From the NCBI RefSeq assembly GCF_036971445.1, contig NC_091476.1, positions 6,572,001 to 6,636,000 of the forward strand: DNA of 64,000 nt, in the 5' to 3' direction. Positions 1 to 60,900 of the stretch are shown here, piece by piece. Within the stretch, counting starts at the first letter, position 1. Each line of letters starts with the position of its first letter. The notes beneath the pieces were generated by a model. It saw nothing but the letters and a program-made list of their open reading frames with translations, made no database searches and was not told the DNA's origin. A program made the translations under genes and the position numbers. This stretch comes from Narcine bancroftii (lineage: Eukaryota).

Positions 1-575
1 TTTCAAAAATATATATTATGAGTCCCCATTTAATTTTTTTTCTCTTAATTCATGAGAAATTAAAAATACAAAACATACTGTATGATCTCTACCGATGTCC
101 CTTTCCTGATCAATCAGAGCAAGACTGGTAGGACACAATTAATGAATAAAGGCAAGCATGAAACAACCTTTCAGTGTTACTGCCTCTTCTCACCCCTGTG
201 GTTTGCAGGCATGTTTTAGAATGGATATATCATTCAACCGTCCATTTGTGTGATTTATCACACTGGAATATTAATGCAATGTGTTACCAGTGACTTTATA
301 TACAAATAAATCTGGCACTAAAAGATAAAGTATATCTTTGAAGTTTAGCTATTTGAAAGGAAAACATATTTAAAAAAGGAAATTATTGTGATAATTGGAG
401 AATAACTTCATAGTCACTAGGGAACAACTTCACAGAACATTTTCAAGATTTAAGTTGGCAAGTTCAAGTCCATCTCATAAATGTATCTTTCTGACAGAGT
501 TTAGACACCAAAAGAAGGTTCTTCCCTGTGATAGTACAGACCTATCACCAATGTATATATTTACAGTATCTAGAG

Positions 576-753
576 TGTAATGACCGTGCTTACAGCGATT
601 GGCTGAGAGCTTAGCCACGCCTACTGTCTGGGCCTTAGAGGGTTGTGTCCCTAGCCAGGTCGGATCATTCCGGACTGGTCGGCCACCTGTGAAGAGCTAA
701 TAAAAGCCTTGGTTTGGATCAACAAGTCTTTGGTTCTTTCGACGAGCTCTACA
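576..753 (+). mobile_element. Short solo-LTR-like element
   Basis: TGTA...TACA ends, GC/CpG-richer than flanks, internal ATTGG and AATAAA; no TSD found. Confidence 0.4.
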
Positions 754-1495
754 TTCCTACATTAGGCATAACTTCTGACCTCTGACTTGCTACCTGTGTT
801 GGAATTTCACAAGGTACTGTTATCAAGTGCAAAGATGTTCTTTTGCCTTTGACATCATTTGATACTGATGTTTTATGAGACCCTGGTCTGTTTCCTTTTA
901 AAACTGAAAATGAAGAGTGAATGGTTATAGGCAGAGGAAGGTGAAACCCCTGATTAGGATGTGGTTGAGAAAAGATACTCTTTGAGATTATATTCACATG
1001 ACCTTCAGCTGCAAGAAGAGTTCAGCTGGGGTCATTCACTACAAATGCACTCGCCCACCTTGAAACACTGTTTATTATAACTCCTGTTAGTCCCTCCCTC
1101 AATCCATCCATTTTTCACTTCCTTTCCTCCTGTAAAACAGATGGAACCATCTGACTCAGTGTCTATTTTCAAATGTCTCGTAATTTCAATATATTAAAGT
1201 CTCACATATACACGCTGATTTCATTTTGGCATAAAAAATAAAAGTTCAGCCCCCATCCTGTTTCATATCAATTTTGTTCATCACCCTGTGTATTAAAAAA
1301 AATGTGGGTCTTCTGATCGAAAAAGTACGTTTGCAGAAAATACTAAATATAGAAAGGAGTAAAAGAAACAGCAGATGGTGTATTGATTGCTTCTGGAATC
1401 CTAAAGGAAATGGTGGAGAAGATAACAGAAACCTTACAAGTTACATTTCAGCATTCTACATATTTATAGCACAGCTTCAGACATCATTAAATTAC

Positions 1496-1552
1496 CTTGC
1501 TGAATGGTGCTTCTCTCAGTATTAGGGATCAGCTGTAAGAAAGATAGTTGCT
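1496..1552 (-). CDS. TNFSF13B-like exon 3 (KQLSFLQLIPNTERSTIQQ), first strand of the TNF homology domain
   Basis: ctttgtag|AG...CAAG|gtaatt, 57 nt, phase 1-1, LQLI motif. Confidence 0.85.
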
Positions 1553-4500
1553 CTACAAAGAAAGGATATTAATTTTAGATTAATTATAATCACAGTCCCC
1601 TCTGATAATTGATCACTAATATTTTGAGATTTGATTACATTTCCTTATTTGTTTCTCCAAATGAGGTAATCCATGTTTCCATGTCTGAAACTTTGAATCT
1701 AAAGTGTAATTCCCTGCTGTAGGTCCCACTCAGGATTATTGTCAAAAACAGTCAAGACCCTCAATAAATGTCAAGATCTTACTATTAATGCAAATGAAAC
1801 CATTAAACCGGTGGTTCTTAACCTTTTTCTTTCCACTCACACAATTAAGTAATTCCTATGTCACCAGTGCTCTGTGATTAGTAAGGTGGCATGTGGGTGG
1901 GAAGGGAAGGTTGAGAACCACTGCTCTAGACCCAATTGTTACTGAAATATTTTGCTTGAGAAAAGTTGTCATTGGCCTATTTCCTTTGGAGTTCTGAAAC
2001 CATGCACATAACGAGTCAATGAGGTACAATTAAAACAGTGGTTTTCAAACTTTTTCTTTCCACCCACATACCACCTTAAGCAATCCCTTACTAATCACAG
2101 AGCACCTATGGCATAGGGAACACTTAAAGTGGTACGTGAGGGGAAAGATAAAGGTTGAGAACCACTGCATTAATCAATTTGTAATTCCACCAGTATAATG
2201 TGTGTTTTTTTCCCAAGCAGCAAAACAAGTTTTTACCTTTCTACTACCATGGGATACATTTCCCGTCCTCCCCCTCAGAGATCCTTGGCATTGAAAACAA
2301 AAGCAAATGCAGATACTACAACTGGGAACAAAAACTGAATCTGGAAGAACTCAACAGGTCAAGCACTTGACATTGCTTTTTCATTTAGAAAATTACATTC
2401 ACTCTCCTCAAGTCTCTCACTTCCAGACATAATTTTCTTGATCGTATCCATCTAGAGAATGTGTGTCATGTTGGTATGCTGGAGTGGCTAGAGAAAGATT
2501 ACTTGAGAAAATCCTCAGCTACTGTTTTACCCCACATGTTCATTAGAAATAGAATGTTCATCATTGCATTTTCATAGAAATTCTTTGGAGAGCACTGTTC
2601 CCAATTCTCTTGGAGTGAATCAAGCCCACCACCAATTGAGTTGATAGTTTGACTGAATGTTTTACATTCCACCTTTTTTTCATTTTGCCATCACATGAAT
2701 GGAAAAGTAAATAGGCCATGATGGAAATAAAGCCTGCTGATCTGCAATTAGACGATTGCCGAATTGGCATTACATAATCATAACTGGTTCAAAGCAAAGT
2801 ATGAAAAGGCATCACCAGACATACCCAAAGATGAAGCTACAACACAGGATGTTATAGTTATGAAGCCTCATGCAACAAAGTGACCCCATGATGAATGGAG
2901 CAGAACAAAGGCCTGCAATCCTGTCACATTTAGTCATGAAAAGTGATGGGCAATTGAACAGCTCATAAAAGGAGCTGGCTCCAAGACAATTCTCACAGTT
3001 AATAATGGGAAGAGTCTGCCTATGCATACAAGGACCACGTGATACATTTGCAGTGACCTTCAGCCACAAGAGCTTTTGGAATGATCCACTTTGATTCCCT
3101 CCTCAATTCCCCACCATTGTAGAAGACAGTCTTCGGACAATTCACTTCTCTCCCTGTGATACTCAGATCATGCTGGGGGCAGTGACTCTTATGGGACTCA
3201 TCAAAATCTTGTTGTAGACATATTACAGAGCTGGCTATACCTCCAGCATCACTGTTCTTATGCAGGTTCACACTGACATTTGCACAACTATGTGAAAATA
3301 TGCCCAGAAGGTACTACCTATCCAGTCCAACATGATGGAAGATGCCACTTGTAACTGGGGTACATTTTCAAGAAGCGCCAGGCAATTTGATGATCAAATT
3401 CAAGTGAACTGGTTTATAATTTTCTATTTTGCCTCTCCCATTTTTTTTTCCTCGAGGTGTTACATTTGCTGCTTTACTATTCGTTGGGAACTATTGCAGA
3501 ATGTAGTAAGTACAGTAAAATCCTGGTAATCTGGAATTCAAGCATCTGGCAGCCTCAAGCAAGCAGCAAAAAAATAAATTGCGGAAAATAAAAAGGTAAA
3601 AAATATGAAAATGTAAAATTACCCCCAACCCCCAGAGGTTAGTTTGCCAAACATGCAACATAGAATTTCAAGCAACTGGCAAATCCACTGATCTGGCATC
3701 TCCCAATTCCCATAAATGCTGGATACTAGGGATTTAGCTGTATTATTGTAGAGGAATGTACAAAATATTTGGTACTGAGGCATAACATGAGAGATCAGTG
3801 CAAATGGCCAAAGGTTTGCTCAAAGAATCACAATTCAAGGATTAATTTAAAGGTGAAAAGAGAATTAGATTGAGAAGCTTAGAGAGGGAATTTATGTGAT
3901 TAGGGCTTTGACTACTGAAGGCCAAGCCAGCAAGGGATAAGAAATTAAATCTGCAATGTGCAGGTACTCAGGTTTTGGAAGAGCATAAATATCTGTAGGA
4001 TGGGAGGGCTGGAAGAGGTTCCAGAGTAGCAAGCAAGGATTGTTCGATGACAATTTGAACATTGAAAACAGTTTTGAATGACCTCGTTTCTGGGAGGTAG
4101 AGGCTGTCTGAGAAGCAAATAGTTTTGGGGGGTTTTTCTTTTATGTTGTGCTAATAATATATTTTTTTTAATGTGGGTTAACAGGTTATAATTTTTGATT
4201 ATTGACATTGTTACTTAAAACCATTCCAACGACAACATGTTTTCAGTCTTTTCCCTTTTGTGTGGGAAATAGCTAGTTTTTATTTTGGTTTATAATTTTA
4301 AAGTAATTTGCTTACTTTCACAAAGTGTAGCATTTCTTCTTTTTCTTGTAAGACTCCTGAATTCATTTCTGTCATTATTCAGATTGATTAACTCTTCTCT
4401 CATTTGGAATTGGGCATTTCTCTCATTTTTCAGATTTTCTGGCAGATCTTCCTAAGGAGAATTACGAACAAAATATAAATAGAAAAAAAAAGTTGGCTTT

Positions 4501-7500
4501 ACCTCTGGAAAAAGATCCTTAGATCCTCACCCATCATTCTTCATATGTAATTGTGTACAGTGAATGTTAAAATGCTGTTTCACTGTGGGAGGTGGGAGGC
4601 GTGATCAACTCCCAACATTTTTTGATCGGAGATATTGCCAGTCCATTCCAGGAACTTTGGGTGACCTCTGTGGTGCCAAATTGATGCTCACCAGCTGTTG
4701 CCCAAGCAGTTTACCCAGTCCATTGTACCTACCTGGTTCCATGGGGTTCAGACAAAGTGTATCAAATTTTGGAATGTATCTGGACACGATGGTGAACCTT
4801 GCTCCTCCCCTTCTACTCCATCGAAACACTAATCTCGGAGGCACGCTAACCTTTTACTGTCATGAGGCTCCTGAGTCTTGCTGACATCTCTGCTTTGGCT
4901 GTCCCATCAGGCAGAGAGGGCTGTGAGCAGTGGTTTGGGTGCAGGAAGAATTAAGTAAGGTCTTGCCCACTCTGATGGCTCTTGGACAGCTCAAACTGAC
5001 AGAAAGCCTTTTCATTGTTTCCAATTATCTCTGACGATCAGAGATTTTAAGAAACATTTGGAAAAATGTAAATAACTTCTGAAATCTTAAAAGTTATCAA
5101 TGCAAATTAAAATCATAAATTAACTTTAAAAACATTGCTGTTGTGAAGTAATTGAAATATTAACATTGAATAAAATAGCAAAAACACCGTCATTTGCCTT
5201 TTCAAATTAATGTCAAATGATGCCATTCAAAGGCCCTGGCGTGCAGGTGAAGGATGGGATACAAAGTGGATCCAGATTTTCAGGTCAGTAAATTATGGAA
5301 TAAATGTGTCATCCAAAGGCTGAGCAAGAGGTTAGATGCACCCAAATCCTAACTGGAGCACATTCCATTTTTAAGTGCTGCAGCTCACAAACCCAAAAGT
5401 CTGGAATGTGGTGGCACACGTACGGCAGCTAGTCAACAAGCAGTTCCCTCTGGAACTAGCAGCCGGCCATCCATACAGTCTGGCCTACATCATCTCAGTT
5501 CAATTAAGTTATCTGTCTAAACCATTCCTTAGCGTGGGCTCAACCATTCCTGCTCTTTCAGGATCTTATGTTTGGAGCAGAGTCTCAAGTAATAACAAAG
5601 AATGTTGAGAAACACTTTTTAGTGGCTTGATACTGCCTCCTCATTAGTAGAGAACATAGAACACTACGGCACAGTATAGCCTTCAATGTTGTGTCCAGCT
5701 ATATATTCTTTAAAAAAGAACTAAACCCTCCTTACCCTATCCAGGTGCCTATCTAACAATCTCTTAAATGTCCCTAATGTTTCAGTCTCCACCACCATCC
5801 CCAGCAGGGCAATCCAGGCACCCACAACTCTGTGTAAAAAAAAAACTTATCCCTGATGTCTCCCCTAAACTTCTCTCCCTTTACTTTGTACATGTAACCT
5901 CTGGTGTTTACTATTCCCACCCTGGGAAACGGGTACTGGCTGTCCACTCTATCCATGCCTCTCATAATCTTGTAGACCTCTATCAAGTCCCCTCTCATCC
6001 TTCTACACTTCAAAGAGAAAAATCCCAGTTCTACTGACCTTGCCTCATAAGACTAATTTTTCAATCCAGGCAACATCCTGGTAAATCTCTGCTGCACTCT
6101 CTCCATAGCTTCCACATCCTTCCTATAATGAGGTTACCAGAACTGAACACTATTCTAAATGTGTTCTCACCAGAGATTTGTCGAGTTACAACACAACCTC
6201 TCTTCTCCTGAACTCAATCCCCCTATTAATGAAGCCTAGCAACCCTTAGGCCTTCTTAACTATCCTATCAACCTGAGTGGCAACTTTGAGGGATGTATGG
6301 ATTTGATCCCCCAAGGTCCATCTGTTCATCCACACTTTTAAGTAACTGACCATTAACCCTGTACTCAGCCTTCTGGTTTGTCCTTCCAAAATGTATCACC
6401 TCACATTTATCCAGAACAACTTCCTGTTCCTACCCTCTCTGGTGCATGGCACAGGCAGCAATCCTGAGATTACCATCCTTGAGAACCTGTTTTTTAAATT
6501 TCTTTCCTAACTCCCTATATTCCCTCTTCAGGACCTCATCCCTACTCCTGTCTATGCCATTGGTCCCCACGTTGGCCACAACATCTGGCTGCTCACCCTC
6601 CAGCATGCTGTGAACTCTATCAGAGACATCCCTGACCCTGGCACCTGGGAGGCAACGTACCATCCGGGAGCCTCGATCTTATTCCCCAAACCTCCTATCT
6701 GCTCTCCTGCCCAATGAGTCGGCCAGCCTCCGAGCCAAAGACATGACCACCACGACATGTCCCTGGTAGATCATTTCCCCAACAGTATCCAAACAGTGTA
6801 CTTGTGGTTGAGGGGAACAGCCACAGGTGTGCTCTGCACTTTCTGCCTCTTTCCCTTCCCTTTCTTAACAGACACCCCTGAAGCTCCTCTGCCTCCCAAA
6901 TCAGCTGGAGTTCATCCAGCTCCATTTCCCTAACACGGTCTCCCAGGAGCTGCAGCTGGATACACCTCTTTCAGGTGAAGTCATCAGGGACAATTGTGCT
7001 GTCCCAGACTTCCCACATCTTGCAATCAGAGCACTCAACTGCCCGAGCTGCCGACTCCATTAACTCTTCCGAATTACGTTCAAAGATCTTACCTTAGTGC
7101 AGGGTTTGGAAGCCTATGGCCCAAAGGCTGCAGACCGGAAATCTGGCCTGTGTTCTAAATTTATCCGTACAGTGTCACTGCCGCCCTCCCACCCCCAGTC
7201 CAACACCTCCAAATAAATCAATGCAGCCCACCATTCAATCACTGACTCACCATCTGTCCTGCACATGGTAAAAGGTTGTCCCGTCCCGTCCCTCCCCTCA
7301 GCGGAATCAAGCTTGTCCTCAGCCTCTGCTCACCAAAGCCTCTAACTCCCACTCCAACACTGGGCCATGTACACAGGCCATTCTGCTTGAGCTTTCCCTC
7401 TTTTCATTTGTCACTACCTATGACCTTAATTACTCTTCCCACCAATCACTATATGTAGAACAAATATTTGGAAAAATTAGCAGATATGTATACACATGAA

Positions 7501-7991
7501 ATGATATGTCAACTGACATTGGGGTTTGGGGGTTTTTGCTGTGAGTAAGCTATTTTTCCATCTATCCTGGTTTATTGCCTTTATCAACATAAAGTTGTCA
7601 TTCTCTACTCGAGTCGTCACAAAGTTCTTTGGTGTCACTTCTTGACTTCAATTCATTTTGACAACTGAGAATGGAAGATGACATTTTGAATTTACTCCTG
7701 TAACTAAAACAAAACTGAAGAGATTTAGTGGAAGTATTTCCTTACCATTTCTTTTTCATGTTGCATTGAGCTATCCCCCACATTTATTCCTGTCCTCTTG
7801 TTAAAAACATGAAGCTGGTTATGGACATTTGCCAGTTCACTCCGTAGATCCCGTAGTTGCTGCATCAGTATCAATAGAAGTGACAAACAGCATAAAACAG
7901 CTAAGAAAAGGATAACAACACTTATAACAAACCCTCTCATGAGAGATCTGGTCCTTGATTCCGGTAAATTATTCCAGTATTTGGTTTGCAT
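1496..7991 (-). CDS. BAFF/APRIL-family TNF superfamily ligand (TNFSF13B-like, probably BALM), 5' partial: join(7991-7746,4451-4316,1552-1496); remaining TNF-domain exons expected left of the window
   Basis: Three phase-compatible exons encode a type II TM segment, a stalk with furin site RKRR, then KQLSFLQLIPNTERSTIQQ. The last aligns with BAFF TQDCLQLIADSETPTIQK and is a 57-nt phase 1-1 exon like BAFF exon 3. Confidence 0.85.
1809..2167. mobile_element. hAT-type MITE (copy 1)
   Basis: TIR C(A/G)GTGGTTCT(C/T)AAC...GTTGAGAACCACTG; 8-bp TSD cattaaac/cattaatc. Confidence 0.88.
3513..3740. mobile_element. Tc1/pogo-type MITE (related partial copy at ~60364-60510)
   Basis: TA|CAGTAAAATCC...GGATTTAGCTG|TA; shared internal gcggaaaataaa..ggtaaaaaata. 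Confidence 0.75.
4316..4451 (-). CDS. TNFSF13B-like exon 2 (EDLPENLKNERNAQFQMREELINLNNDRNEFRSLTRKRRNATLCE), furin site
   Basis: ttctccttag|GAA...GAA A|gtaagc, 136 nt, open in phase 0->1, RKRR. Confidence 0.85.
5652..7060 (-). mobile_element. CR1 LINE with internal deletion (ORF1 esterase region joined to ORF2 3' end)
   Basis: CLPGARVRDV...VGTN (SGNH ORF1) at 6430-6663 directly adjacent to ORF2 C-terminal RRMRGDLIEVYKIMRG at 5774-6013. Confidence 0.82.
7746..7991 (-). CDS. TNFSF13B-like exon 1: short cytoplasmic tail, TM helix, coiled stalk (MQTKYWNNLPESRTRSLMRGFVISVVILFLAVLCCLSLLLILMQQLRDLRSELANVHNQ...QHEKEM)
   Basis: ORF 7725..8033; ACA ATG start, ~23-aa hydrophobic segment followed by QLxxLRxEL as in BAFF/APRIL, ATG|gtaagg donor. 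Confidence 0.82.
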
Positions 7992-8039
7992 TGTAATTAA
8001 ATAGTTTATGTCTAGTTCCAGCCACTGATACAATTCCTT

Positions 8040-8130
8040 TACTCAACAGAGGAAGTCTGTATGACAGAATGCATTATTTTGCAATGAGAACAGGAAATTG
8101 TATTTCGTAGAAATATTTGCATAATTAAAT
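8040..8130. promoter_or_regulatory. Putative leukocyte-type proximal promoter of the TNFSF13B-like gene
   Basis: AGAGGAAGT (PU.1/ETS) 8048-8056, ATTTTGCAAT (C/EBP-like) 8076-8085, ACAGGAAAT 8090-8098 and octamer ATTTGCAT 8115-8122, all 57-131 bp upstream of the ATG. Confidence 0.55.
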
Positions 8131-13399: not shown

Positions 13400-13464
13400 T
13401 TAGACATTCAGGATCTCAAATTCTTCTTCCGATTCAAACAGTTTGTCAGCTGGCTCGACAAACT
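13400..13464 (-). CDS. ATG4A: ATG4A exon 13, coding part (EFVEPADKLFESEEEFEILNV*), C-terminal LIR FEIL
   Basis: cag acceptor, TAA stop at 13402-13400, acidic stretch plus FEIL. Confidence 0.95.
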
Positions 13465-16400
13465 CTGGGGAGGTCAAAAATACAAAAGTAAACATGACTT
13501 TTTACTTGGCAGCACTCTAAGAAAGGAGAGAAAATACTGGAAATTGGTCATTTCTTGCTGATAAAGATGTTGATTCAAGTGTCAAATTAAACAGGAAAGA
13601 AAAAATTCATGGATTATTCAACACCAATTAGGAATAAGACATGTACTGGAGAAAGGAAAATTAATTAACCCAATAGAATATCTCATTCCCTTCTTTATGT
13701 CAGTAATGTTTTGATACAGCAGAATAAGAACATTTTCATTTCCTTGTTAAAAGTTAAATAACAAAACGAATCTAAAATGGTTCGACAAACTTGAGGATTG
13801 AACTGTGGCAAAGCAGTTTATAAGGGAACAGTCAGGAAGGAGGGACATGGAAAATGAAGGAAATTTTGAGGAAGATTCTGGAGGAATATAAAGGTTTGAG
13901 GACTGTATTTTGCAGCCCATGGTGGAGTATAAATAGTAGCATGGTAAGAAGTGAACGAGTGCAGTTTGTTACTTCGAAACAAGTCCTGGGAAAAATTCTG
14001 ACCTGGTAGAATTAGTTCATTGGAGAGAAGGCGGTGCTGAGAAGTGAGAATGAATTGGGTTAATATCACCAGGCAGAATGTAGGCCAGGATGTAGCTTCA
14101 GCAAAGAATATCACTGAAGTGGTTGGCATAAACGACAGGGAAGAAGTGGTGTCTTGAAATGACAACTGGGATATTAAATAAAATAAATGTCTTAGCATAG
14201 TCCTCACCTGCACCTGTGGTCAGTACTTCAGGTTTAGTTGCAGGGATAAATGGAGGCCAATGTGCAGGATGCTTCTCAACTAGTTCAAACATTCGGAAAC
14301 TTTGTGTCTTCAGGATTTCCTGTCAATTTGATGTTCAGGTCATTATGACACAGATAAAGCAAGGATTTATTTTATTATATAGACTTAACATATTAATTTA
14401 TGCCACATCCACTTGGTCTCAGGTTCTGGATCTTAAGCCAATATAAACTGATAGAGGTTAAAAACCTTTTCATTCTCTATGCCTTATTATCACAGCCGGG
14501 AGGCTACAAAAGATAGCCAACGTAGCCAGGTCTAATACAAGCATTTATTTGGTTGCAGCAAAAAATAACTTTGGTGCATATGTACATTGTACAATGTGGA
14601 CACCGATAAATTAATGATCATAATGGCAAGCTCCTCAGAAACATTTAAACCTTGGCTAGGTGAATCGGTGTCCACAATACTTGCCAAATTTCTTTGGTGT
14701 GAGGCCAATCTCATACTTGCACGTGCTGATGGAATATGTGTCACTTGGCTACTGAAGAAAATCCTTTCTTAAATGTTAGGCTTCCTTTTGCAAATGACAC
14801 TTCCTTCTGGTCTGAGCAAAGAACTGAAAAAGAATGTCTACAAGTGCATATTATATTCCTAGAAACCCTCTGGTTCTTAACGACGAAAAAGACTGTGCTC
14901 CCTTTAGTGACAGAGGTTTTTCCCCTCAATAAACAAAATGAGCTTAGAAATAAAGAAAACCAAAGGATTCTTAGCTCTAGCAACACCAATGACTAAAAAG
15001 GACCTGCAGGAGTCAAGGCAGCTGCTCATCACCACCCTCTCAATCCAAGAGTGATGGACAATAAATGCAAGCTTTCCCAGTTATACCCATATCTTGGAAA
15101 ATGAATTATTTTATTTTTTAGATTGAATAAAAAAATAATAATTTCATACCTTCTGTACAAAACTACACCAGTTTTCAAAATCTCTTTCAGTGTTGCAAAA
15201 AAATCCCTGTAATAAGAAGCAGATGTCAAGAAAAATAGATAAACCATCAAATAGGATGCAATTATGCACGAGGCATGTGGGGTCTAAACCTTTAATTTAC
15301 ATACTTTGACATCATTAGATTTAAAATATGTAAATTAAATGTTAGCAGAATGAATTGTGTGTATGTACATTCAGGCCAGTATACTGGCAAATCCAAGCAC
15401 CCTACAACTGTTCACAGCAAGCTCCTTCCCTGCAGGAAATTAAGAGCAGAAGGCAAACAAGATGACCAAGGAACCTCTGATCAATGATGCTCCTGTGCTT
15501 ACCTCAGCATTAGTGGAGGACTAAGAGGAGTCATTTTTGTTTGGACTACACCCAAGAGGTAAAATTCAATTTTCTCTTTTATCTGCAAACAAATTAAATC
15601 TGTGGCATACAATATCTGGTCTCTTCATAGCTCAGAACCCTTAGAGCAAAATATTTCCTTCAGGTGCTGTGAGATAGGGCACAGCAAGGTCTATATCAAG
15701 TTCAACCATGCTACTTCTGAAGAGGTCCTTGGGCCTTAGCGTGAAATCTGTGATGTGAATGCCACGTGACCTTTTAGTGACCCTTTATGGAGGGGGGATA
15801 AGGAAAATGAGTGATTGCTGGGAAGTTTAAAATTTTATGAGATGACATTCTTTGAAACAGAAAATAAGAATTTGCTGCATCTGTGGAAGACTCTGTAACA
15901 TAACGCCTGAAGCAAACAGATTTGCAGTACTCAAGTTAGATGACGTAGCTAATTTGACTAGCAAAAATAATACTGTGTGGCGGCACACATCTCTGTGAGC
16001 AAACCATCCCCGTTTGAACCGCCACGCTGGCGGGGCAGCTGCAGAAGATGGCGCTGTCAGGGCTTGCTCATTGCCTCGTGGCTCAGGCCACAGCTCGCAC
16101 CCCGGGCCACGTGATGACGTCACTGCTGTGCGGGGTGGAACTCCCGTTGGTCTTAAAGGGGCGCGCCCAAAATTCAAATAAACAGTTCTACTGGAAACCC
16201 CACCGAGTCCAGGTGTTTTCTGTGTGTAGCAGCCGCTACAACTGCCCTGAAACCAGAACTCTTCCCCTTTGATTGGAGAAAGTCCTACAAGTTACTCATC
16301 CATCAGGAGGGACAATTCTTGCAAGATAACTAATGAGAAACTAAGCAATCCTTCTCATCGGGTCTAAATTTGTTTTACTTTAACAGAACTACATTTGTCC

Positions 16401-19400
16401 ACATTTGGGGACAATGACCCTTAATTATTACAACATTTGTACTAATGTTGTTTAGACTTAGCTAATGGGGTGTGTCATCTGGGTCGAGAATTACCATCTG
16501 CTTTGAATAAATAGACCTTTAGGGCTTTGTGTGTAATTAATTGTGAAAATGAACTTGTGCACATCACAGATATATAGCCTAAAAAATATTCAGTCACCTA
16601 ACATTGATGTGTGACCCAAGAAAAAAAAAGATGAAGTTTATACCCAAAAGGCAGAACAAAATTAATCAAATAATCACTCTCAAACATAAAGTTTTGCCCG
16701 TGAAGATGTTCTTGATCTTGACTGGGTAATTTGGGTGAATGTCTTGAAAAGGAAATGAGGAACCAGTATTGAAGACGGATGTTTGTCCCAGTGTCTACTT
16801 ATTACAATCAGTGGTGAGTCAACTGACATTCGTGATTTACATTTCCTAGCAGCTGGTGTGTTGTGACATTCTAGAATGTAAACCGTGCCATTATAATGCA
16901 AATTTATAAAATATGTTAGGCCTGTGCAAATAGGTTGCTATACCTACGTTTATCAATGTCACACAAACTGCGAGGATTTTGATAATTTGGGAAAAACTAT
17001 TTCCACTGATCGACAGGGTGCTTATGTTTAAGATGACAAGAGAAAAATTAAAATAAGCATTAAAAATATTTTTACTTGAGGATTGTTGAAATGCCTCAGG
17101 CTTTCCCAGGAATCATATGGAAATATATTTTTTTAAGTTTGTAAGGAATTGAACTAAGTGTCTTGTTCTAAAGGAGTGTGCATTCACATAGGATCAAGTC
17201 ATCTCCCTCTGTACCATAATACGCTGATTCCCTGACCTAGCACTGCCATGCAATTCTCCAATTCAATGTCATATCTACAAGTGTAGATCAGGATGTATAA
17301 ACCACCACAGTTTCTAGTTAATCTGTACAAAGCAAAGGGGGGGGGGGGAACGGGGGACCTGTTCCGAAATACCTCTAAAATTCCTATCAACATTAGTCTC
17401 TGGTTTTCATATATGGTGTGTCCACAGAGGTTATTCAAATATTTCAATACCAGTTGCTAAAGATCAGTGATATCTAGGTTTGCCATTTGGAAGTGCATTA
17501 TAATATTCACAACAGGTGGTGCTGTTGTGCTTTCTGAAATACATAGTGATAGTGTCTTTATCAGCGCAAGTACCACACAAAGAATGGGAATTGCTTGTCT
17601 CTTCTTGTGTAGCATTAAGATTCTGCCCTTTCAGAGTTGCTGCATGACTTTAAAAAAGTGGAATGGACACCACCAGGATTCTGAAGCCAGAGAATACCAA
17701 AAAACAGGAGCTGGTATAGGCCCCTCAAGCCTGCCCTTCCACTCAACATGATCATGGCTGATCTATGCTGACCTTAACTCCTCTGCTGTGTCTGTTTCCC
17801 ATTGCCTTCAATTCAGTGATCTTTCAAATATTGATCTAACGTCATCTTGAACAAATCTAATGATCCAGTCTCCTGGGGTAGAGGTTCACTGCACTCAGAG
17901 AAAATATTTCCACACACCTCAATTTTAAATGACTGGCACCTTAGTTTGTAGCTTTGTCCCCTTGCTCGTGCCTCTCCCACGAGTGGAAACATCTCAACCT
18001 TCGATAAATTGTAATAAGTAACTGAGTTCTGACTACGACTTTGATCTGAAATATTAACTGTTTCTCTTCCTAGCTCTGTGATTTGACCTGCTGTGTATTT
18101 CCAGCATTTTCTGTTTTTATTTAAGAATTGTAATAATTATTCAAGCTCCTTGTTCATCGAAGATATCAAAAATCACATTTTATAAAATAACTTTTGCTCC
18201 AAATCCCTTAATATCAATTTGTTATCTGAAATCTGTTCTTTTGATATAAAGTTAAAAATAGACCTAGCATTAATTAGAAACTCAAAAGCATTGATAAAAA
18301 TGAGATAATCATTAACTGTGATTAGATCCTATTAAACTTAGTGAATAGAATTTGTTGCCAGTGACAAGCATCCAGTACTCGACAGTGACCAAACTAAGTA
18401 GAAATCTATCTGACATCTGCAATATTGGCTTGCTGCTTGGAGCCATCCCAATTGTAAAGGGTGTGCTGGTAATGCTGTATGATGAGGGTGGGCGAGAGCA
18501 AGGCTTGGTTTACAGATCAATAGAGAAAAACAATTTAGTTGCAGGCTTAAACTTGTTGTCAAACCTCTCTTGGGCAGCAAATGCTTCTGAAAGTCAGGTG
18601 TTCAAAAGCATTCAAAAATTATCAAAAAATTAATGAATCAAGCATTTTAGCAAATAAAATTAAAACAATCCAAACATTGAAAATAAACTCGATTAATTTA
18701 AAAAAAATTATAAATGACCCCTTCCCCATTTTCATTGCTGCCCATTGAAATGATGGACACACAATGTGACAGGCCAGTCCTCAAGCAGAATTGTTAGAGA
18801 AATGCAGCAAGTTCTTGCTTCAGCAAACTCGAAGAGCTCAAGTGCTGAGAAGCAGAGTCATCAAACCCCAGTGAAGAGTAGATAGCAAATTTGGGAATTC
18901 AGCACATACCTGGAAGTCCCAAACTTTCTAATGTGGGGGTGATTAACAGCAACTTTTTTTAAAATGCAAGAGCCTGCAGCTGAAGCATTTTTGAGAATGA
19001 TGGTTAGGAATAAGTTACTTACGAATATTTCGTAAAAATCAGTATATGTGAAGAAAAAGTGTTAGAAGGGTAACCAAAAGGATACAAATACACGAACGGA
19101 ATGATAGAGATTCTGAGATTCACAAAATGTCATTTACATGGCTAATAAATGACATTTTCTGAGAAAATGAAAGATTTCCCTTTGTGGCATTGAACTTTGT
19201 GCAAACAAAATCAATGTAGTCTGAGAATATTTTCAGGACATAGTGACAGGTACAGGAAAACATCTATTGAACACAAATAACGGAAAAGCAACATAGCTTA
19301 TAAGGGGAAACAGAACATTGATTAAAAAAAAACCATTTACATCAAATGGCACATGGACAAGGGAAGAACTGGATCTTTGAAAACAGAGATGGTGACAGTT

Positions 19401-22400
19401 AAACATGCAGGACTAAACACCAATAACTCAGGAACTAAAGGAAAGGGATATCAACAGATACATGGGGCCCAATGAATAAATTACATTTTTCCATAAAGTG
19501 TTATGTTTGACATGCTCTTTTTGCCTATAATTCCTCTTTTCTGCATTCAAACATGAGCATTAAGAAATGGGACCTGAATGTAAACATTTGCCTGTCAACA
19601 AAATTTATTAACAATCTTAACAAAACAAACTTATTTATAAACTACAATAAAATAGGAAAATGTCCTAGCAATTAGACAAACAAGAAAATGTTCTGTTAAA
19701 GGATTTAGGAAGTACTAAAAACAACTTGTCGAAATGTTAAGCACAAGGAGAGGGAGGGGGAAGGGGTTTGTGAGCCATGTTCACACCCTCTGCAGTTTCT
19801 TGCTTGGGTGGAGCAGTTCCCACTCTACACAGGGCTGCACCCTCTGTAGACATGGTTAAGAGATGCATGTGACATGCCAAATTTCCTCAGCCTTCTGAGG
19901 GATTCAGGGCATTGGTGCACCTTCATGGCCACTTCATCGACGTGGGGCAGGACAAGTCACTGGGAATGTTGATTCTCGAGATCACCAATACAATACCGTT
20001 ACAAGAAAATTCATTAAAGAATTCAGATAAAGCAAGTTACCCAAAAGTGGTGAGAACATGAAACACCAATTCATTGTAGTGTACATTATAAATACATTTG
20101 AAGGAGGCGGTTCAAGCATATGAGGCAAAAGAAGATAGAAGGTTTTGCAAAAAGCTTTAGATGAACAAGGACAGAACAAGACCCAATTGAAGTATGAGCG
20201 TTAGTTCTGATTTGTTGAGATGAAGGGCCTGCTTCAGTGCTATATGGAGATGCCAAAGAAAAAGACAAGAAATAAACACAGAGAGTTGTGAACTCAGGCA
20301 GCAACCATCATGGCCATTCGTCTTCACTTGTTCGAGGTCATCTACAAGAGGCAGTGCCTTAAGAAAGCAGCTTCTATCCTCAAGGACCCCCAGCACCCAG
20401 GTCATGCTCTTTTCACTCTGCTATCATCTGGAAGGGGGTACAAGAACCTGAAGACGAATCCCCAGTGGCACAAGGACGGCTTCTTCCCTTCCGCCATCAG
20501 ATTTCTGAATGGACATTGAACCACAGACACTACCTCACTTTCTCTTCTTTTTGCACTAACTTATTTATTTTAAAATGTAATTTATAGCAATATTTTCACT
20601 GTGATTACTGTCCCAAACAACCAATTTTGTGATTTGTTCATGACAATAAATTGAAACTGAAAATTTATCAAAATTCTGATTCGGCGAAACAAATCATTTT
20701 TTGAGAGATTAGTCATTACAAGTGATATTCATGGTTGAGACAACAAAACAGGATTGGGTTGTATCACTCACTAAAGCTACTGAAGGGTCGAGATTTGTAA
20801 TTTTCATACGATAAGGTGCTCGGTGACAATGATAACTGCGGTCATCCACACTCCCATCATTCTCTGTGTCCACTGCAGCCTGAGTAGTATGGGGGTCCAA
20901 ATAGATTAATTCATCTCCTATGTAGACAGCAGAAAATATTTCAGTCATATGTGTAGCATTCAGCGTCGCACCAGGATGAATTAATAAAAATTACCGTACA
21001 TCACCACCTTTGCATTCTACATCGTTGCACAATACTGACATATTGTACTCAGTACAACTTATTTAATACAAATTACAGCCTATCTACCTGATCCAAATTC
21101 TAGATGACCCAATTATATATGCCAAGTTCAGATTCTCAAAAAAAGACTCCCTAGGTTAGTGTGGGATAATGCCAAATAGAGTTGTTAAAAATTATAAATA
21201 ATAGAAGCAGAGTTGATAGGGAGTAAGTTTTCTCATTAGCAAAAGGGCCAAGAGCCAGTGGACAGAGGCCAAAGAAGACTGGTGAAAAGAACCAAAAATT
21301 AATACTGTGGAAGGATTTATTTTTAAACCACCTTGGCCTGGGGGGGGGTTTGCATCTTCAGATCCTAAAATAAGTGGTTACTGGATGCCAAATTATTGAG
21401 TTCCACTGCATTTTAATGGAGAAAACTTGCAGAAATCTGCAAAAGAAGGAATTTTGGGGCCCTTGTCCACGAAACCCAGAAGGTTAGTACATAATTGAAG
21501 CGAGTAATAGGGAAAGCTAATGGAATGTTGGCCATTGTTCAAGGGGGGGGGGGGGGAGGGAGGGCAATGAATATAAAAGTAGAGAAACCTGATTGTTCAA
21601 CTGTTCAAGGTCCCCTATGTTAGGAAATGAATAATTTCCTTTGAGTGGTTCAGAGGAGGTTTTCTGTGATGATCCCAGGTACAGAACAGTTAGTTTAAAT
21701 AGCTTGTACCCTACTCATTGGAGTTTAGAAGAATGAGAGCCACTTCTTATTGAAACGTTTAAGATTTGAAGGGAATGGGTATAGTATACACTGAAATGAT
21801 ATTTCCTCTTGTGGAAGAGTCAAGAACCAGAGGGCATAGTTTTTTTAGAATAATAGTTAAGACTAATTAAGCTTTCAAGATCCTAGGATTCCATATAGTG
21901 AGGGAGAAGAAGGCACACTCATGCCTCAACTTTCTAAAGAAGTCTTGTGAGATTTGGGCTGTTGTTAATACTCCATCGAACTTCCACAGTTGGACTGTGG
22001 AAAGTATGGTGACTGGCTACATTGTGGTCTGGTAAGGAAGCTTGAGTGCCCAGAAATGCTTAAGGCTACAGAAAATAGCAAACCTATTCAAGTCCATCAT
22101 GGACACTGACCTCTTGTTCCTTGAAGATATCTATGTGAAACACTGCTTCAAGAAGGCAGCTAACACCACAAGATAAAGGAACAGAAGTAGGCTATTTGAC
22201 CCATTGAGTCCACTCCACAACTCCAGCCTGAGCTAAACTGTTCTCACATCTAGTTCCAAATACCAGCCTTTTCCCCATATCCCTTGATAACCTGGTTAAT
22301 TAGATACTTATCAATCTCCTCCTTAAACTCCTCCCATGATCCGGCCTCCACAGCTGTAGGTGCCAACAAATTCCACAAATCTACAATCCTCTAACTAAAG

Positions 22401-34400: not shown

Positions 34401-37400
34401 TCTGAAGGAGGTGGCTTTAGAGATTGTGGAGGCAATATACTCTGGCATGGTTCTGGAGGACTAGAAGGTCACAAATGTAGTTCCGCTGTTTAAGAAAGGA
34501 GGGAGGCAGAAAAAGGAGGTCAGAAGTTGGAAAGTTATTGGAGTCGATCCTCAAGGATGAGCTTGAGCTTATGAAATATCTCAAGGTGCACGATATGATA
34601 TGTCCAAGTCAGCATGGTTTCATGAAGGGAAGATCCTGCCTGACCAACTAATAGGAATTTTTTGAGGAAATACCAAGTAAGAAGGACAAGAGAGAGGCGG
34701 TGGATGTTGTGTATTTGGATTTTCAAAAGGCCTTCAATAAGGTGCTGCATAAGAGGCAACTTAATAAGATGAGATCCCATGGAATTACTGGAAAGATATT
34801 AGATTGGGTGGAACATTGGCTCATAGGCAGAAAGCAAAGGTTGGGAATAGAGGGATCCTATTTTGGTTGGTCGCCAGTTACTAGTGGTGTTCCTAGGGGT
34901 CAGTGTTGGGGATGCTTCTTTTTACAATGTATATTGATGATTTAGATTATGGAGTGAATGGTTTTGTGGTGAAGTTTGCAGATGACACCAAGATAGGGGG
35001 TGGAGTAGGAAATGTTGAAGAAACCGATAGGTTGCAAAGAGATTCGGACAGCTTAGGAGAGTGGGCAAAGAAATGGCAGATGAAATACAATGTTGAGAAA
35101 TGTACATTCTGGAAGAGGAAATAAACAGGCAGATTATTATTTGGATGGGGAGAAAATTCAAAATGCGAAGTGCAAAGAACTTGGGGGCCCTCATGCAGCA
35201 TAACCTAAAGGTTAACCACCAGATTGGATCGGCAGTAAAGAAAGTGAATGCTATGTTGGCATTAATTTCAAGAGGAATAGTGTATAAGAATAAAGAGGTG
35301 TTTTTGAGGCTCTATAGGGTTGAAGAGAGTACAGAGAAGATTTAGTAGGATGATTCCTGGAATGCAAGGGCTGACATATGAGGAACATTTAACAGCATTG
35401 GAGTACAGAAGAATGAGATGTGAATAAGATGTTTCCCTTGGTGGGTGAATCCAGGACAAGTCTTAGAATTAGAAGGTACCCATTTAAAACATTTCTTTAG
35501 TCAGAAGGTCAAGGATTTGTGGAATTGGTTACCACAAACAGCTGTGGAGGTCCGATCACTGGGGGAGTTTAAGGGGAGATTGATAGCTATCTAATTCGTC
35601 AAAATATGAAGGGATATGGAGAAAAGGCTGGAATTTGGAACTGGATGTGAGAATGGTTTAGCTCAGGGTGGAGTTGCAGAGCAGACTCGAAGGGGCGAAA
35701 GGCCTACTTCAGTTTCTTTATCTTGTGATCTTGTGAAACAGTGCAGCTGTTTACTATCTTAAGAAGTCAAGCTGCCCTATGCTAATTCTCATAGAATTTG
35801 TAGTTTTTCCATTTTAATTAATGCACAGTGTATTGTTATCTAAATAAGCAAAAAGTTAAGACTTACTGATGTCTTCAATAACTACAGTATTATCCATGGA
35901 AATGTAAACTGCAAGTGCATTCCAGTCATCAAATAATGTAAGTTTCCTGTGAAAAAAGAAACATTCATCCTGTAGATTTCTAGTTTGAGATAAAGATAGA
36001 AGGGGAAGGAATGATTACACAAAGTTAAATTAAATTAAAGCCACTGAATTGAAGGCATTTTTAGAATCTTAATAATATGCACATTAGGATTCCCTTTGGC
36101 TGCAGTCTTTTTTCTGGGATAGCAGATACCTCTAAAAATACTGAACAATGTTCCCTTTGAATTTAATTCTTATGAACTGGCAAACAAGAGAATGTATAAC
36201 TTAACTCTTTTGATAGCACCTGACTTTATTCTTCAATCAGCATCTTTCAGATTTTAGTCATTATATTGCATGTGGGAGCTTGTTGCATACAAATTAAATG
36301 CCACATTCTCTGTATTACAACAGTTCAAAGAGTATTGCATTGTGTAACAGATTTGTGTTAACCTTTAACGTTAAACTATATTTTTCATATATAAAAAAAT
36401 GTCTTAGTAATGTATAGAGTTAAAAATATTGTATCTGTACTCTTAGTAAATTAGTTGTGAGCTGGTACAGGTTCACACACAGGTCACAGCACATTGACAG
36501 AGAACCATTGCTTTCAGAGAAGAGTGTTAATTTTCAGAGTCCACATGTCTTGGAAAGACAGAGCTAATTCATTTGAAGTGGGCCTTAATTATTCAAGGAC
36601 AATGGAGCATTTGCTTTATTAAAAATGGAAATATCTAAGTACTCAATAAGAACTGCCGAAAGAAGCTACCTTGTTTTAAACTGAACCATTTAAGGCCTCT
36701 TGAACAAGAAAAATGAAACTCAGAGCCATGTGAGTGATATTCTTAAGCCTTTGAAGCAGAAGTGAGGTCATCTTTCGGAGCCGTATGAAGATCACGTGGC
36801 TTACAAGAAATTGGGGTTGGCCACTGTTTAAAATTCCAATAACTGATCACTTTTTTTATAGGAAATAAGAATGACTTCATTGATGATATAACTGTCATGT
36901 GATTTTGAGAAATATATTATTGAATTCAGACATTTTTGGAAGAGTTCAGGGGTTGAAGCCTTGTGAAAGACAGGGTTGAGTTACAGTAACCAGAATAGGT
37001 GCTGTTGTGTGTCTTACTTCTGTGAAAAGGGGAACACAGAATCAGTGGCTTTTGAATTAAGGAAGACCACTGTGCTGTCTTTTTGGAAAAGAGGACAAAT
37101 TCTATTGGATCTATTTTTGTATGGCCACTTCATTTAACCCTTGTCTGGATTTGTGAATTCATTGTGGAAGAATTGGGCAGAATTGTGAGTAAAGAGACCT
37201 GAAGATAGGATGTTTAAAAGTGCTTTGTAATTATTTCCGAACTGAAAATTGAAGACTTTCAAGCAAGACTAAATTATGCTGAAGTTTTGAAAATGGACTT
37301 TTCAGAGTGGTACTTTATCACACACACACACACATTTACATTTTACATTTGCGCAGAGTGGGGTTAAATTTAGAGTTAAGTTTAGAGATATGGAAAAAAA

Positions 37401-40400
37401 TGTTATGTTGTTAATAGTTTAATGAAAAAAACTATTATTTTGAATTTACCACTGTCTGGTGAATTTTCCCTTGCTGTTCCTGTGTTAGTGCTAACAAAAT
37501 CCCTTTGGTCCCAAAAATAATTAAGAGGGTTGTAAATTTGTAACATATAAATACTTTTGAACATCATGTGATTGCAAAAGCTATGACATAAATGTGTCCT
37601 TTTATACTTCCATGATGGACATCAGAGGAAATTGAAGCCACATGTTATTTATTTAGACGTTATGATACACTAAACTGGAGTGCTTTAAACGATGTCGGGT
37701 GTGTAGGAACTCGCTGATTGTTTAGTGCCGATGTGTCTAGATTAATATGGCTGCAGGGGATTTAGATGATACATATTTCAAGAGCAGTTACTTAATCATT
37801 AGTCGAAAGCCCCAAAAATGTCCTTCTATTTCTAAAGTTGTTTGAAGAAATGAACATTGATTTACTTATGCAGAGTAATTGAAACCTTGGTATGTTTCAA
37901 CCCCTGAAATTATTGATCCAAGATACTCTGAGCTGAAAGCAAATTAAGAAGGTTGGGTGATGAGGATGGAGGGAATGGATATTAAATTGTTAAAGATATC
38001 ATATCTGACCATAACCTAAAGTTAACATGCTTACTAGTTTAAGTGGGACAGATTCGTCAGCAAGTAAACTGCTCTGGAGAAGCAAGTCAATTATTTTAAT
38101 ATATAAACCAGACTCTTGGCACAGTTTTGGAATCTATCTGTAACTTGCAGTGGAGAGCTGGGATTCCTAGCACCCAGAAAACCAGAAATTAAAGGGAGCT
38201 GGAAGCTTCTGGCTGCACTTGCTAATTTGTTGCTTTAAAAAGAAGAAAGGAAGGGTCAATCAGCTTAACACTGGTGAAGGGGACACGACTGGAAAAAGTT
38301 CTGAAGGATGGAATAAATTATTATTTAGTCAAGGACAATTCCCATAAATTTGTTCAACTCAACTTGTGTCTGACTGACTTTTTTTGAGGAGATAATAAGC
38401 AAAGTCAATGAGATAATTAATTTTATATAATCTATGTTGATTCACAAACCTTTGCAATGACAACTAATGAAAAAGTAAAAATACATTAAATCCAAGCTAA
38501 GAGTTCAAAATTGTATATGAAGTAGAACAAGCTCAAAGGTAGGGAGCAAGTAAGTATAGTCAGTAGGGGATAGGAAGGCTGTTACAGTGGTGTTCTGGAG
38601 GGCTTTGCTTTACATAATGATTAACAATGAAAACATAAATACAGGATGCCAATTAATACCTTTGGAGAAGAGTCAAAGATTGGCCTTGGATGGTTAATGA
38701 GGAAGGAAAGTGCAGGGAGATATGCAGTGACTAAAACAAGAGGGTGTAGGTTTAGGATAAGGGGATAAGAGGGGATCTAAAGAACAACTTTATTACCCAA
38801 TGTGTGTTTAACATCTGGAACACTCTGCCAGAATGGGTGTTGCATGTAGGTATTCTCACAACTTTTAAATGAGCACTAGAATCACCAAGGCATAGAAGGC
38901 TATCAGACAAAATGTTGGTCAATGGAATCAGTATGGATGGGTACTTTGTGGTTGGTATGGACATCCTGGAGGGAGGACAAACGTTCGATTGCTGAAAAGT
39001 GCATGTCTCGAGATCCCCGAATCCCTGCTAACTTGTGATGGTTGTCATTTCAAGAAACAAGGTGGAAAAGATGACTAAAGTGGTACCTTTAATCACTCAG
39101 GCACAGAAACAAGGTTAAGGAGATCACAGTAGAATTGTACAAAACATATATCTCTCTAAAATATTATATGCATTTGGTCACTACATTATAGTAGAATATT
39201 ACAAAAAGTTGTAATACATGAGAGGATTTAAGAAGATGCTGGCAGAGCTGGTGAGATTAGCAACATGAAATAAAGAGGACAGAGGGAAGATTTAATTAAG
39301 TTGTGTAGAAATATTAGAACCAATTTCTTTTAGCAGCCAGAATAAAGGAGAAGATTGGGAATATAAGGATAGTTCAGAAAAAGAAAAGTTGAATAAATGA
39401 AGTTTAGCTTATTGCATCCACATAATGATAATGTGCAGATGTAACAAAAATTTCATTTGCTGCAACTGCCCAGGTACATAAAATATCACAGCACATAAGA
39501 GAAAAAAATAACAAAAGGACAAAGAAAAACAATATTCACAGTTGGATGTAGTGTAAAAATTATGCTGTCTTTAGAGCAGATAGATATTTGCTGATCTTGA
39601 AGTGGTCTGGTTAGTGTAGGGAAGTTCAAGAGCCTGATGGCTGTTATCTAAATGCCATTCTTAAAATCAAAAATAATTCTGAGAGTTGTGAAGTTCTGGA
39701 ACTCCCTGCCGGAAAGGCTGTTAAAGGCCACAAAACGAGCCCGAGAACCGGGTGTCAAGTGGTCTAATTAATACCTTTTCAGATGCCAAGAACTGAATAA
39801 GCCTTGCATGAATGTCAATTGTTCTCATTGTTTTCCGGAACCCTTCTAAAGGGCCTAGGCAGCTCCTCTGGAGGTAATGCGAGAAAATGCTGCCAGATCT
39901 TTTCCTAACATTCATGTCTCCACCCACCCTCCCCCCCAGCCTCATTATACAGCAACCTTCTCCTATCCCCCCTTCCACATTGCTGTTTCTTCTGACTGCG
40001 GGGAACAATCTTCAGTGGCCCCTCACTGCAGCCTTTTTTCACTGGTTTTCTCACATGAGTGGGAAATGGAGTGAAGGAATGGGACTTCAAATCATTTTCG
40101 GTTTCTTGACCACAAGTATACTCCTCTGCATCCGTGTACCCAAATGCCCCATTCTCTTCAACAACAGCAGACAAAACTCGCATAACAATATCAGCAAAAC
40201 TAAATTGTGGAAAGAATGGTGTCTGAAACAATTGATGGCACTTATCTATATTCACTTACTTCAATACTTGAGCCACTGTATTAGGTCCGTACCATTCTCC
40301 TACAGATTTGCCCTCACCCACTCCCATCTGAGCTGTTATAAAGTTAAAAAGGAAAAGATTTAGAATTCAACTGGAAGTATGTGTCACAATATTATTCTGC

Positions 40401-56498: not shown

Positions 56499-56612
56499 AT
56501 GGATGGGACCGTGTCTAATGTGGAGATCTGTAACTTGGCTTATTCAGGGGACCTGGAGCAGCTCAAGGCCCTTATTTTGTCAAACAAGGGTCTAGCTACA
56601 AAAACTGATCAA
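56499..56612 (+). CDS. PSMD10: PSMD10 (gankyrin) exon 1 (MDGTVSNVEICNLAYSGDLEQLKALILSNKGLATKTDQ)
   Basis: GCA ATG G Kozak context, CAA|gtaagc donor; matches the gankyrin N-terminus (VSN..CNLAYSG...LATxTDQ). Confidence 0.95.
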
Positions 56613-57141
56613 GTAAGCAAATTACTTTGTCCGGAGTGAAGATTAATCATGAAAGTGCATCGATTGGGCCTAAAAGTTTGGTCTGGACTCCTTTGGGGAT
56701 GGTCCACCATAGTCTCCAGCAAGGTTCAGTGCAGGACGCCCGGACGGTGAGCTACCAGGTGTATTGGCGTGGTTTCAGATGATGGTGTTCATTGATACCC
56801 TATTCAGCAGATATACATTAGATGTCCAGTGCACCTCGAATTTCCCGAGCCTTGGAGGGCCACACCATTGGCAGTTATCCTCAGTGATCAATCCCAGCCA
56901 GCCTACGAGCTTGCAGACACACATCCAGTGGGACACTGCAAATCATGAACTGTTACTAGCAGCGAAAGCCGGATTTGAAGCTTGTCAGATAATGATGTCA
57001 AGAGGAACAGCATCAGTTTAGTCACTTAATGGCTTTGGGTGGGAGCTACCTACACGTGTCCTTTATTGGGGCCATTGAGGCAATGTTTTGGATTTCTTTG
57101 TTCAAGCTCCTAAATATAATAATTGGATCCAGGTTCTAGGT

Positions 57142-57510
57142 CAGTGGTTTTCCACCTTTTTCCTTTCCACTCACATCCCTCTTTTAAGTCATCCCTATGC
57201 CATCGGTGTCTGTGATTAGTAAGGGATGGGTTAAAGTGGGATGTGAGTGGGAAGGTTGGGAATCACTGCCCCAGACCTAATTGTTACTGAAATGTTTTGC
57301 TTGAGAAAAACGGTCATTGGCCCATTTCGTTTGGAGTTATGAAACTGCACATAACAAGTGAATTAGGTACGATTAAAACAGTGGTTCTCAACCTTTTTCT
57401 TGCCACCCACAGACCACCTTAAGCAACCCTTTACTAATCACAGAGCATTGACGGCGTAGGAAATACTTAAAGTGGTCTGTGAGTGGCAAGAAAAAGCTTG
57501 AGAACCACTG
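57142..57510. mobile_element. hAT-type MITE (copy 3)
   Basis: Same TIRs and core as 1809-2167; TSD diverged. Confidence 0.85.
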
Positions 57511-58829: not shown

Positions 58830-59131
58830 AAGATGGAGATCCATTGGCCCATTGAGTCTGCCATTTTAATCATGAGCTGATCCATCCACCCACTCAGCCC
58901 CACTCACCAGCTTTCTCCCTGTAACCCTTGATGCCCGAATCAAATCTCTGCCTTAAATATCCACAACATCCTCGCTTCCACAGCCGCCTGTGGCAACAAA
59001 TACCACAGACTTCCGACCCTCTCACTAAAGAATTTTTTCTGCATCTCTCTTTTAAATTGACACCTTTTTATCTGAAATTGTGCCCTCTTGTCCTGGAATT
59101 CCCAACCATGGGAAACATCCTTTCCACATCT
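58830..59131 (-). mobile_element. CR1 LINE 3' fragment
   Basis: Reverse-complement similarity to the 54980 and 22165 copies. Confidence 0.75.
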
Positions 59132-60801: not shown

Positions 60802-60900
60802 GATAGCAGAACAGCTTTACATTGGGCATGCTCAGCCGGACACAAGGACATTGTAGACTTTCTGCTAAACCTTGGAGTGCCAGTAGATCCTAAAGATGAT
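60802..60900 (+). CDS. PSMD10: PSMD10 exon 2 (DSRTALHWACSAGHKDIVDFLLNLGVPVDPKDD); gene continues beyond the window
   Basis: tag|...|gtgagt, 99 nt = one ankyrin repeat (TALHWA..GH..IV..LL). Confidence 0.96.

Follow-up and report, generated by a model that had tools for sequence, protein, structure and literature searches.

The minus strand of a 64,000-nucleotide stretch of the genome of the ray Narcine bancroftii (contig NC_091476.1, positions 6,572,001 to 6,636,000; below, the window) carries, from position 7991 down to 1496, the first three coding exons of a TNF-ligand gene. Judged by phylogeny and diagnostic residues, this gene is almost certainly BALM, for which Redmond 2017 (PMC5316386) proposed the name TNFSF13C. 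The best explanation overall, which we hold with good confidence, is that it is the ray ortholog of BALM, a third TNF ligand of the BAFF/APRIL type in fishes, and that its product acts as a furin-shed B-cell survival factor. The gene, its name, and its neighbors were already known from RefSeq and two published supplements and are not new biology.

Coding exon 1 (7746..7991; 246 nt, 82 codons) ends in a phase-0 GT donor and encodes a short cytoplasmic tail, a type II transmembrane helix at residues 25 to 43, with a Kyte-Doolittle mean of 3.3 across these 19 residues, and the start of the stalk. Exon 2 (4316..4451; 136 nt, phase 0 to 1) adds further stalk, the furin consensus RKRR at residues 118 to 121, and then an N-A-T sequon. 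Exon 3 (1496..1552; 57 nt, 19 codons, phases 1 and 1) encodes strand A of the TNF domain; this first strand, SFLQLIPNTERSTIQQ, closes the peptide. All three lie on the minus strand and are bounded by AG acceptors and GT donors. With intron phases of 0, 1, and 1, the joined frame is free of stops and yields 146 residues identical to residues 1 to 146 of RefSeq XP_069748871.1 (272 amino acids [aa]) and XP_069748872.1 (248 aa), the former being a Narcine bancroftii protein labeled 'TNFSF13B-like'. A protein search with exon 1 gave 6 matches among 100 candidates, all of them ray or shark 'TNFSF13B-like' proteins, the top one a 100% identical sequence from Narcine bancroftii. The preliminary description of this DNA had proposed just such an in-phase, three-exon type II protein with a stalk, RKRR, and the first TNF strand, and every coordinate holds. 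Its remark that exons 2 and 3 are missing from the open reading frame list is true of a list with an 80-aa limit, because both exons are short; both are present in RefSeq. Intron 3 starts in the window (1..1495, minus strand), and residues 147 to 272 are expected to be encoded to the left of the window by three further exons, with breaks near residues 146, 184, and 234. Neither a motif scan nor a full-protein tblastn search found further TNF-domain exons within the 64 kb (next-best match, E value of 3.1), and these residues were taken from RefSeq rather than from window DNA.

Two homologue searches retained 56 sequences out of 445 candidates and 57 out of 71, among them the bamboo shark BALM ADZ54859.1 and the spiny dogfish BAFF of Redmond 2017. 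Trees were built from 50 full-length rows, from 35 rows of the TNF domain (145 columns), and from 22 of those 35, with shorter isoforms and near-duplicates omitted. The ray protein fell inside a cartilaginous-fish clade of 15 rows in the full-length tree (support of 100/100). In the 35-row domain tree, 13 BALM sequences split from 22 BAFF sequences with a Shimodaira-Hasegawa-like approximate likelihood ratio of 99.6 and a bootstrap value of 100, and the 22-row tree recovered the same split at 99/99. Placement of the ray sequence inside shark BAFF was rejected on the 22-row set (approximately unbiased test, p-AU of 4.9e-5). Two features separate the groups completely: a one-residue insertion before a conserved arginine in the G-H loop (13/13 BALM and 0/22 BAFF) and an aromatic residue at the position of BAFF Y206 (0/13 BALM and 22/22 BAFF). 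RefSeq gives the name TNFSF13C to close relatives in Callorhinchus, Rhincodon, and Carcharodon and to one gar protein. The BALM label suggested earlier is thus supported by phylogeny, since the ray protein groups with named TNFSF13C sequences, apart from BAFF, with support of 99 to 100. Identity as BAFF (TNFSF13B) was discarded, the protein lying outside the BAFF clade and its gene having ATG4A, not ABHD13, as its 5' neighbor.

Membership in the BAFF/APRIL family, also claimed in the preliminary description, was borne out by a Pfam TNF match to the 272-aa protein (39.7 bits, cut-off of 23) and by a search of solved structures in the PDB, in which BAFF scored best (168 bits), followed by APRIL (75) and EDA (24). 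Pfam matches of DUF6377 and Col_cuticle_N to the membrane helix were weak, under the cut-off, and set aside. Over the TNF domain, ray BALM is 52% identical to human BAFF, 35 to 37% to APRIL, and 21 to 23% to EDA. An AlphaFold model made with a 50-sequence alignment (mean predicted local distance difference test score of 75.3, stalk unresolved) folds into a beta-sandwich with a root mean square deviation of 1.0 Å to BAFF over 145 columns. The D-E loop, or flap, aligns to that of human BAFF without a gap and is 6 residues longer than that of APRIL.

Compared with other cartilaginous fishes (Callorhinchus NP_001409564.1, Carcharodon NP_001409565.1, Rhincodon NP_001409566.1, and Chiloscyllium ADZ54859.1), the ray protein is 66 to 75% identical at full length and 76 to 83% in the TNF domain. 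It shares their diagnostic residues and differs by species-level changes only, such as the N-A-T sequon after RKRR; ATG4A is also the neighbor in Rhincodon, Carcharodon, and Leucoraja. The four bony-fish BALM sequences aligned (gar NP_001409570.1, lungfish, bowfin, and mormyrid) fall on the same side of the tree, with the G-H insertion, a nonaromatic residue at the Y206 position, and a full-length flap. They are 51 to 54% identical to the ray in the TNF domain, and where their neighbors are listed the gene adjoins EDA, not ATG4A. BAFF resembles ray BALM in type II topology, furin site, fold, flap length, the K216/E223 pair, the C232-C245 pair, the M208-G209-H210 motif, and a 19-codon exon 3. 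Ray BALM differs from it in belonging to a separate clade, in an extra residue before R265, in the lack of the Y206 aromatic and of H218, and in its locus, BAFF being found in the order ABHD13-TNFSF13B-MYO16. APRIL and EDA share the TNF fold and furin shedding, and EDA is the neighbor of BALM in bony fishes; the flap present in ray BALM is absent from APRIL, where a 6-residue gap stands. Neither tblastn nor a motif scan found a TNF-ligand gene between ray BALM and ATG4A, and the tandem of APRIL with TNFSF12 was accordingly not encountered there. As separate observations, an extra cysteine at residue 191 in the C-D loop occurs in 9/9 cartilaginous BALM rows and 0/26 other rows, and sharks and rays have a second BAFF paralog that forms a 10-row clade (100/100) in the full-length tree (P0030, P0038, P0040, P0051, P0053, P0056, and relatives). 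Marin 2025 (PMC11762692) lists the second BAFF copies of Rhincodon and Leucoraja as transposed, Leucoraja being listed with that copy only.

Splicing was examined in three public runs from one study, which are presumed to be RNA, no run being recorded as such. Contigs of runs X1 (2508 nt) and X2 (2598 nt), two of the three, join exon 1 to exon 2 without mismatch or gap. The joint as listed is offset by one base, since a G stands on both sides. The contigs also set the least extent of a 5' untranslated stretch continuous with exon 1 (7992..8048, minus strand), the true start of which they cannot fix; no upstream ATG occurs in 7992-8060. Depths of 6.71/8.01 and 7.75/9.24 were predicted from the contigs for 1496-1552, and 6.71/8.0 and 7.75/9.24 were seen. 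Because the contig depths account for this coverage, exon 3 would be included in the contigs of X1 and X2. Neither an exon 2-exon 3 joint nor a form skipping exon 3 was among the joints listed. Apart from this, intron 2 contains a short high-copy element (1799-2165) with internal direct and inverted repeats, whose depth is very high in each of the three runs; it probably consists of a small nonautonomous transposon in two adjoining copies.

Isoforms were compared as well. In the 248-aa Narcine model of the XP_069748872.1 type, the last 38 residues are replaced by 14 others and the last strands are lost; it scores under the Pfam TNF cut-off and is probably not a working ligand. BALM exon 3, phase symmetric with 57 nt and 19 codons, equals in length the exon skipped in human delta-BAFF, a form that lacks exon 3, measures 266 instead of 285 aa (19 residues fewer), and dampens BAFF (PMC9250527, PMC4067067). 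Predicted RefSeq models of BALM from Carcharodon, Cetorhinus, and Chiloscyllium (P0017, P0019, and P0020) are without the same 19 residues.

The distance from the ATG4A stop to the BALM ATG is 5409 bp. ATG4A and PSMD10 had been named as neighbors beforehand, and both were found in the window, ATG4A immediately upstream of BALM. The resulting order PSMD10-ATG4A-BALM agrees with the supplements of Marin 2020 and Marin 2025. The former (supplementary file 2, PMC7674686) gives ATG4A-BALM in Rhincodon and PSMD10-ATG4A-BALM in Carcharodon. In the latter (file S3, PMC11762692), Callorhinchus, Carcharodon, and Rhincodon have EDA-COL4A6-COL4A-IRS-BALM and Leucoraja has EDA-COL4A6-COL4A1-BALM-ATG4A; the Carcharodon, Rhincodon, and Leucoraja rows are annotated 'EDA, BALM separated'. 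COL4A6 and IRS genes, which the preliminary description proposed to look for further left, stand at the BALM locus in 4/4 and 3/4, respectively, of the cartilaginous fishes listed (PMC11762692). BALM adjoins EDA in lungfish, coelacanth, fugu, gar, and sturgeon and is absent beside EDA in the rows for frog, turtle, alligator, chicken, platypus, human, zebrafish, and bichir (PMC11762692). The synteny idea of the preliminary description was therefore right for cartilaginous fishes, where it was already in print, and wrong about the site and timing of loss. It had BALM persist next to ATG4A and then disappear in mammals; the gene is EDA-adjacent in bony fishes and absent there in the tetrapods listed from frog to human. 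Since BALM stands beside EDA in lungfish and coelacanth, its loss came early in tetrapod history and struck the site next to EDA.

How BALM arose is disputed in print. The preliminary description took it for the BAFF ohnolog, that is, its twin from genome duplication; this is likely, and it agrees with Redmond 2017, in which BALM splits from BAFF with a posterior of at least 0.96 (PMC5316386). Marin 2020 (PMC7674686) and Marin 2025 (PMC11762692) regard BALM as a tandem duplicate of EDA. That BALM arose in this way after the second genome duplication, and is no direct BAFF ohnolog, is in our view rather unlikely. An EDA-BALM tandem does exist in lungfish, coelacanth, gar, sturgeon, and fugu, and according to Marin the model needs one duplication and no losses (PMC11762692). 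Position alone cannot separate the two models, because under either one a TNF ligand occupies the site equivalent to that of BAFF. The tandem model is harder to reconcile with a TNF domain 52% identical to human BAFF and 21 to 23% to EDA, with the Redmond posterior, and with an exon 3 of the same length as the skippable exon 3 of BAFF. In jawless fishes, moreover, EDA-like and BAFF/APRIL/BALM-like genes are already separate (PMC7674686). The identities and the separate jawless-fish genes favor the ohnolog, and position by itself leaves the origin unsettled.

Gene orientation adds to this question. We take the human order to be PSMD10-ATG4A-COL4A6-COL4A5-IRS4, and the 3' end of BAFF presumably faces IRS and COL4A. 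In the ray window the 5' end of BALM faces ATG4A; therefore, its 3' end should face IRS/COL4A. The ATG4A-BALM adjacency is probably a derived inversion breakpoint of cartilaginous fishes. Inverting the segment BALM-IRS-COL4A5-COL4A6 turns the shark order into NALF2-EDA-BALM-IRS-COL4A5-COL4A6-ATG4A. We infer that this order is ancestral because it accounts for the tandem of EDA and BALM in bony fishes as well as for the human junction of ATG4A with COL4A6, and because it runs collinear with the BAFF block. In the published BAFF locus the order is LIG4-ABHD13-TNFSF13B-MYO16-IRS2; some rows continue with COL4A1, and in others NALF1 precedes (PMC11762692). We give about even chances to a broader proposal. 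In it, a single inversion within the ancestral block NALF2-EDA-BALM-IRS4-COL4A5-COL4A6-ATG4A, collinear with NALF1-ABHD13-BAFF-MYO16-IRS2-COL4A1-COL4A2, would have left the ATG4A-BALM and the EDA-COL4A6 junction of cartilaginous fishes at its two ends; BALM would be the BAFF ohnolog, and the BAFF/BALM split would be younger than the flap and than a skippable exon 3 of 57 nt (a 'delta-BALM' brake analogous to delta-BAFF). The inversion was not found stated in the accessible published text. It may already be implied in Marin 2025, because the figures there color genes displaced by 'transposition or inversion' (PMC11762692).

By homology to BAFF, the 272-aa type II protein would trimerize in the membrane. 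Furin, which is known to cleave BAFF and APRIL (PMC5865128, PMC13586541), would cut after RKRR and free a 151-residue soluble trimer. To go by human BAFF and trout BALM, this trimer would bind receptors of the BAFF-R/TACI/BCMA type and promote survival and proliferation of B cells; recombinant soluble trout BALM raised both in IgM+ B cells (PMC5360319). The BAFF flap residues K216 and E223 link receptor-bound trimers and are needed for signaling, E223 being required for activity, and H218 is needed only for 60-mers (PMC5865128). Human numbering was counted here from the alignment and agrees with the published H218 and E223 (PMC5865128). Ray K202 and E209 correspond to K216 and E223, and N204 replaces H218. 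The flap lysine is present in 13/13 BALM rows and the glutamate in 12/13, one having D. Because the full-length D-E flap is kept together with K202 and E209, BALM trimers probably cluster flap to flap as in BAFF; a stable 60-mer cage is unlikely because N204 stands in place of H218. The surroundings of BAFF Y206 and R265 form what we take to be the receptor site. In the ray, M192 replaces Y206 and a residue is inserted before R252 (BAFF R265), and because of these changes receptor preference may be shifted away from that of BAFF.

It is quite unlikely that BALM instead works mainly as an uncleaved membrane ligand, by pairing with BAFF in heterotrimers or modulating it, or on non-B cells. The multibasic site, the flap K/E pair, and the C218-C231 pair are kept across the aligned BALM rows, which argues against such roles, as does the action of soluble trout BALM on IgM+ B cells (PMC5360319). 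They would fit the receptor-site residues unlike those of BAFF, the RefSeq models that include forms without exon 3 or the last exon, and a literature search that found no functional data on cartilaginous-fish BALM. Marin 2025 (PMC11762692) suggests that genes which tetrapods no longer have may carry out functions not known from tetrapods.

Several points speak against a shed, B-cell-directed BALM ortholog. The trees are unrooted and were built without APRIL, EDA, mammalian BAFF, or trout BALM, and a tree forcing cartilaginous BALM and cartilaginous BAFF into one clade was 17.3 log-likelihood units worse yet unrejected (p-AU of 0.063). According to the review of Tafalla and Granja (PMC6001812), BALM was first defined, in trout, by a D-E loop resembling that of APRIL, unlike the loop of the ray; trout is outside the present alignment. 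A literature search found neither published receptor-binding data for any BALM nor a functional test of shark or ray BALM, and the spliced contigs carry no tissue label. A glycan at the N-A-T sequon directly after RKRR (residues 122 to 124), which among the aligned BALM rows occurs in Narcine only, could slow or hinder furin cleavage in this species. As to the loop, all 13 aligned BALM rows, including gar TNFSF13C, have one of BAFF length, and an APRIL-like loop is therefore no marker of the orthology group as now named. That the gene is a cartilaginous-fish duplicate of BAFF and no ortholog of bony-fish BALM is highly improbable and largely refuted: the 'TNFSF13B-like' label, the BAFF-length flap, the second BAFF copy of elasmobranchs, and the p-AU of 0.063 are outweighed by best trees that join the ray with gar, bowfin, mormyrid, and lungfish BALM at 99 to 100 support, a G-H insertion common only to the ray and BALM rows, the separate clade of both shark BAFF copies, their different neighbors (LIG4-ABHD13/MYO16 and the SOCS1/EMP2 region; PMC11762692), and an ortholog in chimaera.

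Two further genes lie upstream of BALM in the window. ATG4A (13400..56012, minus strand) was traced as 12 exon-like pieces from 53248 to 13403 by tblastn with 104 ATG4 relatives, together with a 10-nt first coding exon recognized by eye and a stop at 13400. A further match, at 30732-30791 (E value of 0.013), falls within a CA/TA-rich repeat and is not counted as an exon here. Compared with the PDB, one ATG4A exon scored 67.3 bits with ATG4A versus 55.7 with ATG4B, and another matched ATG4A only. At 24237-25107 (minus strand), a 36-bp unit repeated 24.2 times with 97% match duplicates an ATG4A exon end and its noncanonical GC donor. The donor context is kept in 23 copies, and each later donor would add 12 in-frame residues to the protease; the array could be a genuine minisatellite or an artifact of assembly. 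PSMD10, or gankyrin (56499..60906, plus strand), is represented by its first two coding exons, and its first exon at 56499 points away from ATG4A. For the ankyrin exon at 60802-60906, the match to PSMD10 is a single stretch (77 bits), and multirepeat ankyrin proteins outscore PSMD10 only by summed repeats. The two genes are head to head, with start codons about 490 bp apart in a CpG-rich interval (56012-56499) that is likely a bidirectional promoter. Fragments resembling LINE retrotransposon coding sequence lie in introns at 5770-7100, 26100-29700, 45244-45750, and 48505-49640.

BALM is a B-cell cytokine that fishes have kept and tetrapods have lost. A small annotation change from TNFSF13B-like to TNFSF13C would follow from the present analysis, and ray BALM, correctly labeled and expressed, would be a usable reagent because no report of a BALM receptor was found in the literature searched. 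The gene order of shark and ray together bears on the published dispute over the origin of BALM, either by genome duplication as the twin of BAFF or by tandem copying of EDA. If the single inversion proposed here is true, it would favor the ohnolog side of the dispute between Redmond and Marin.

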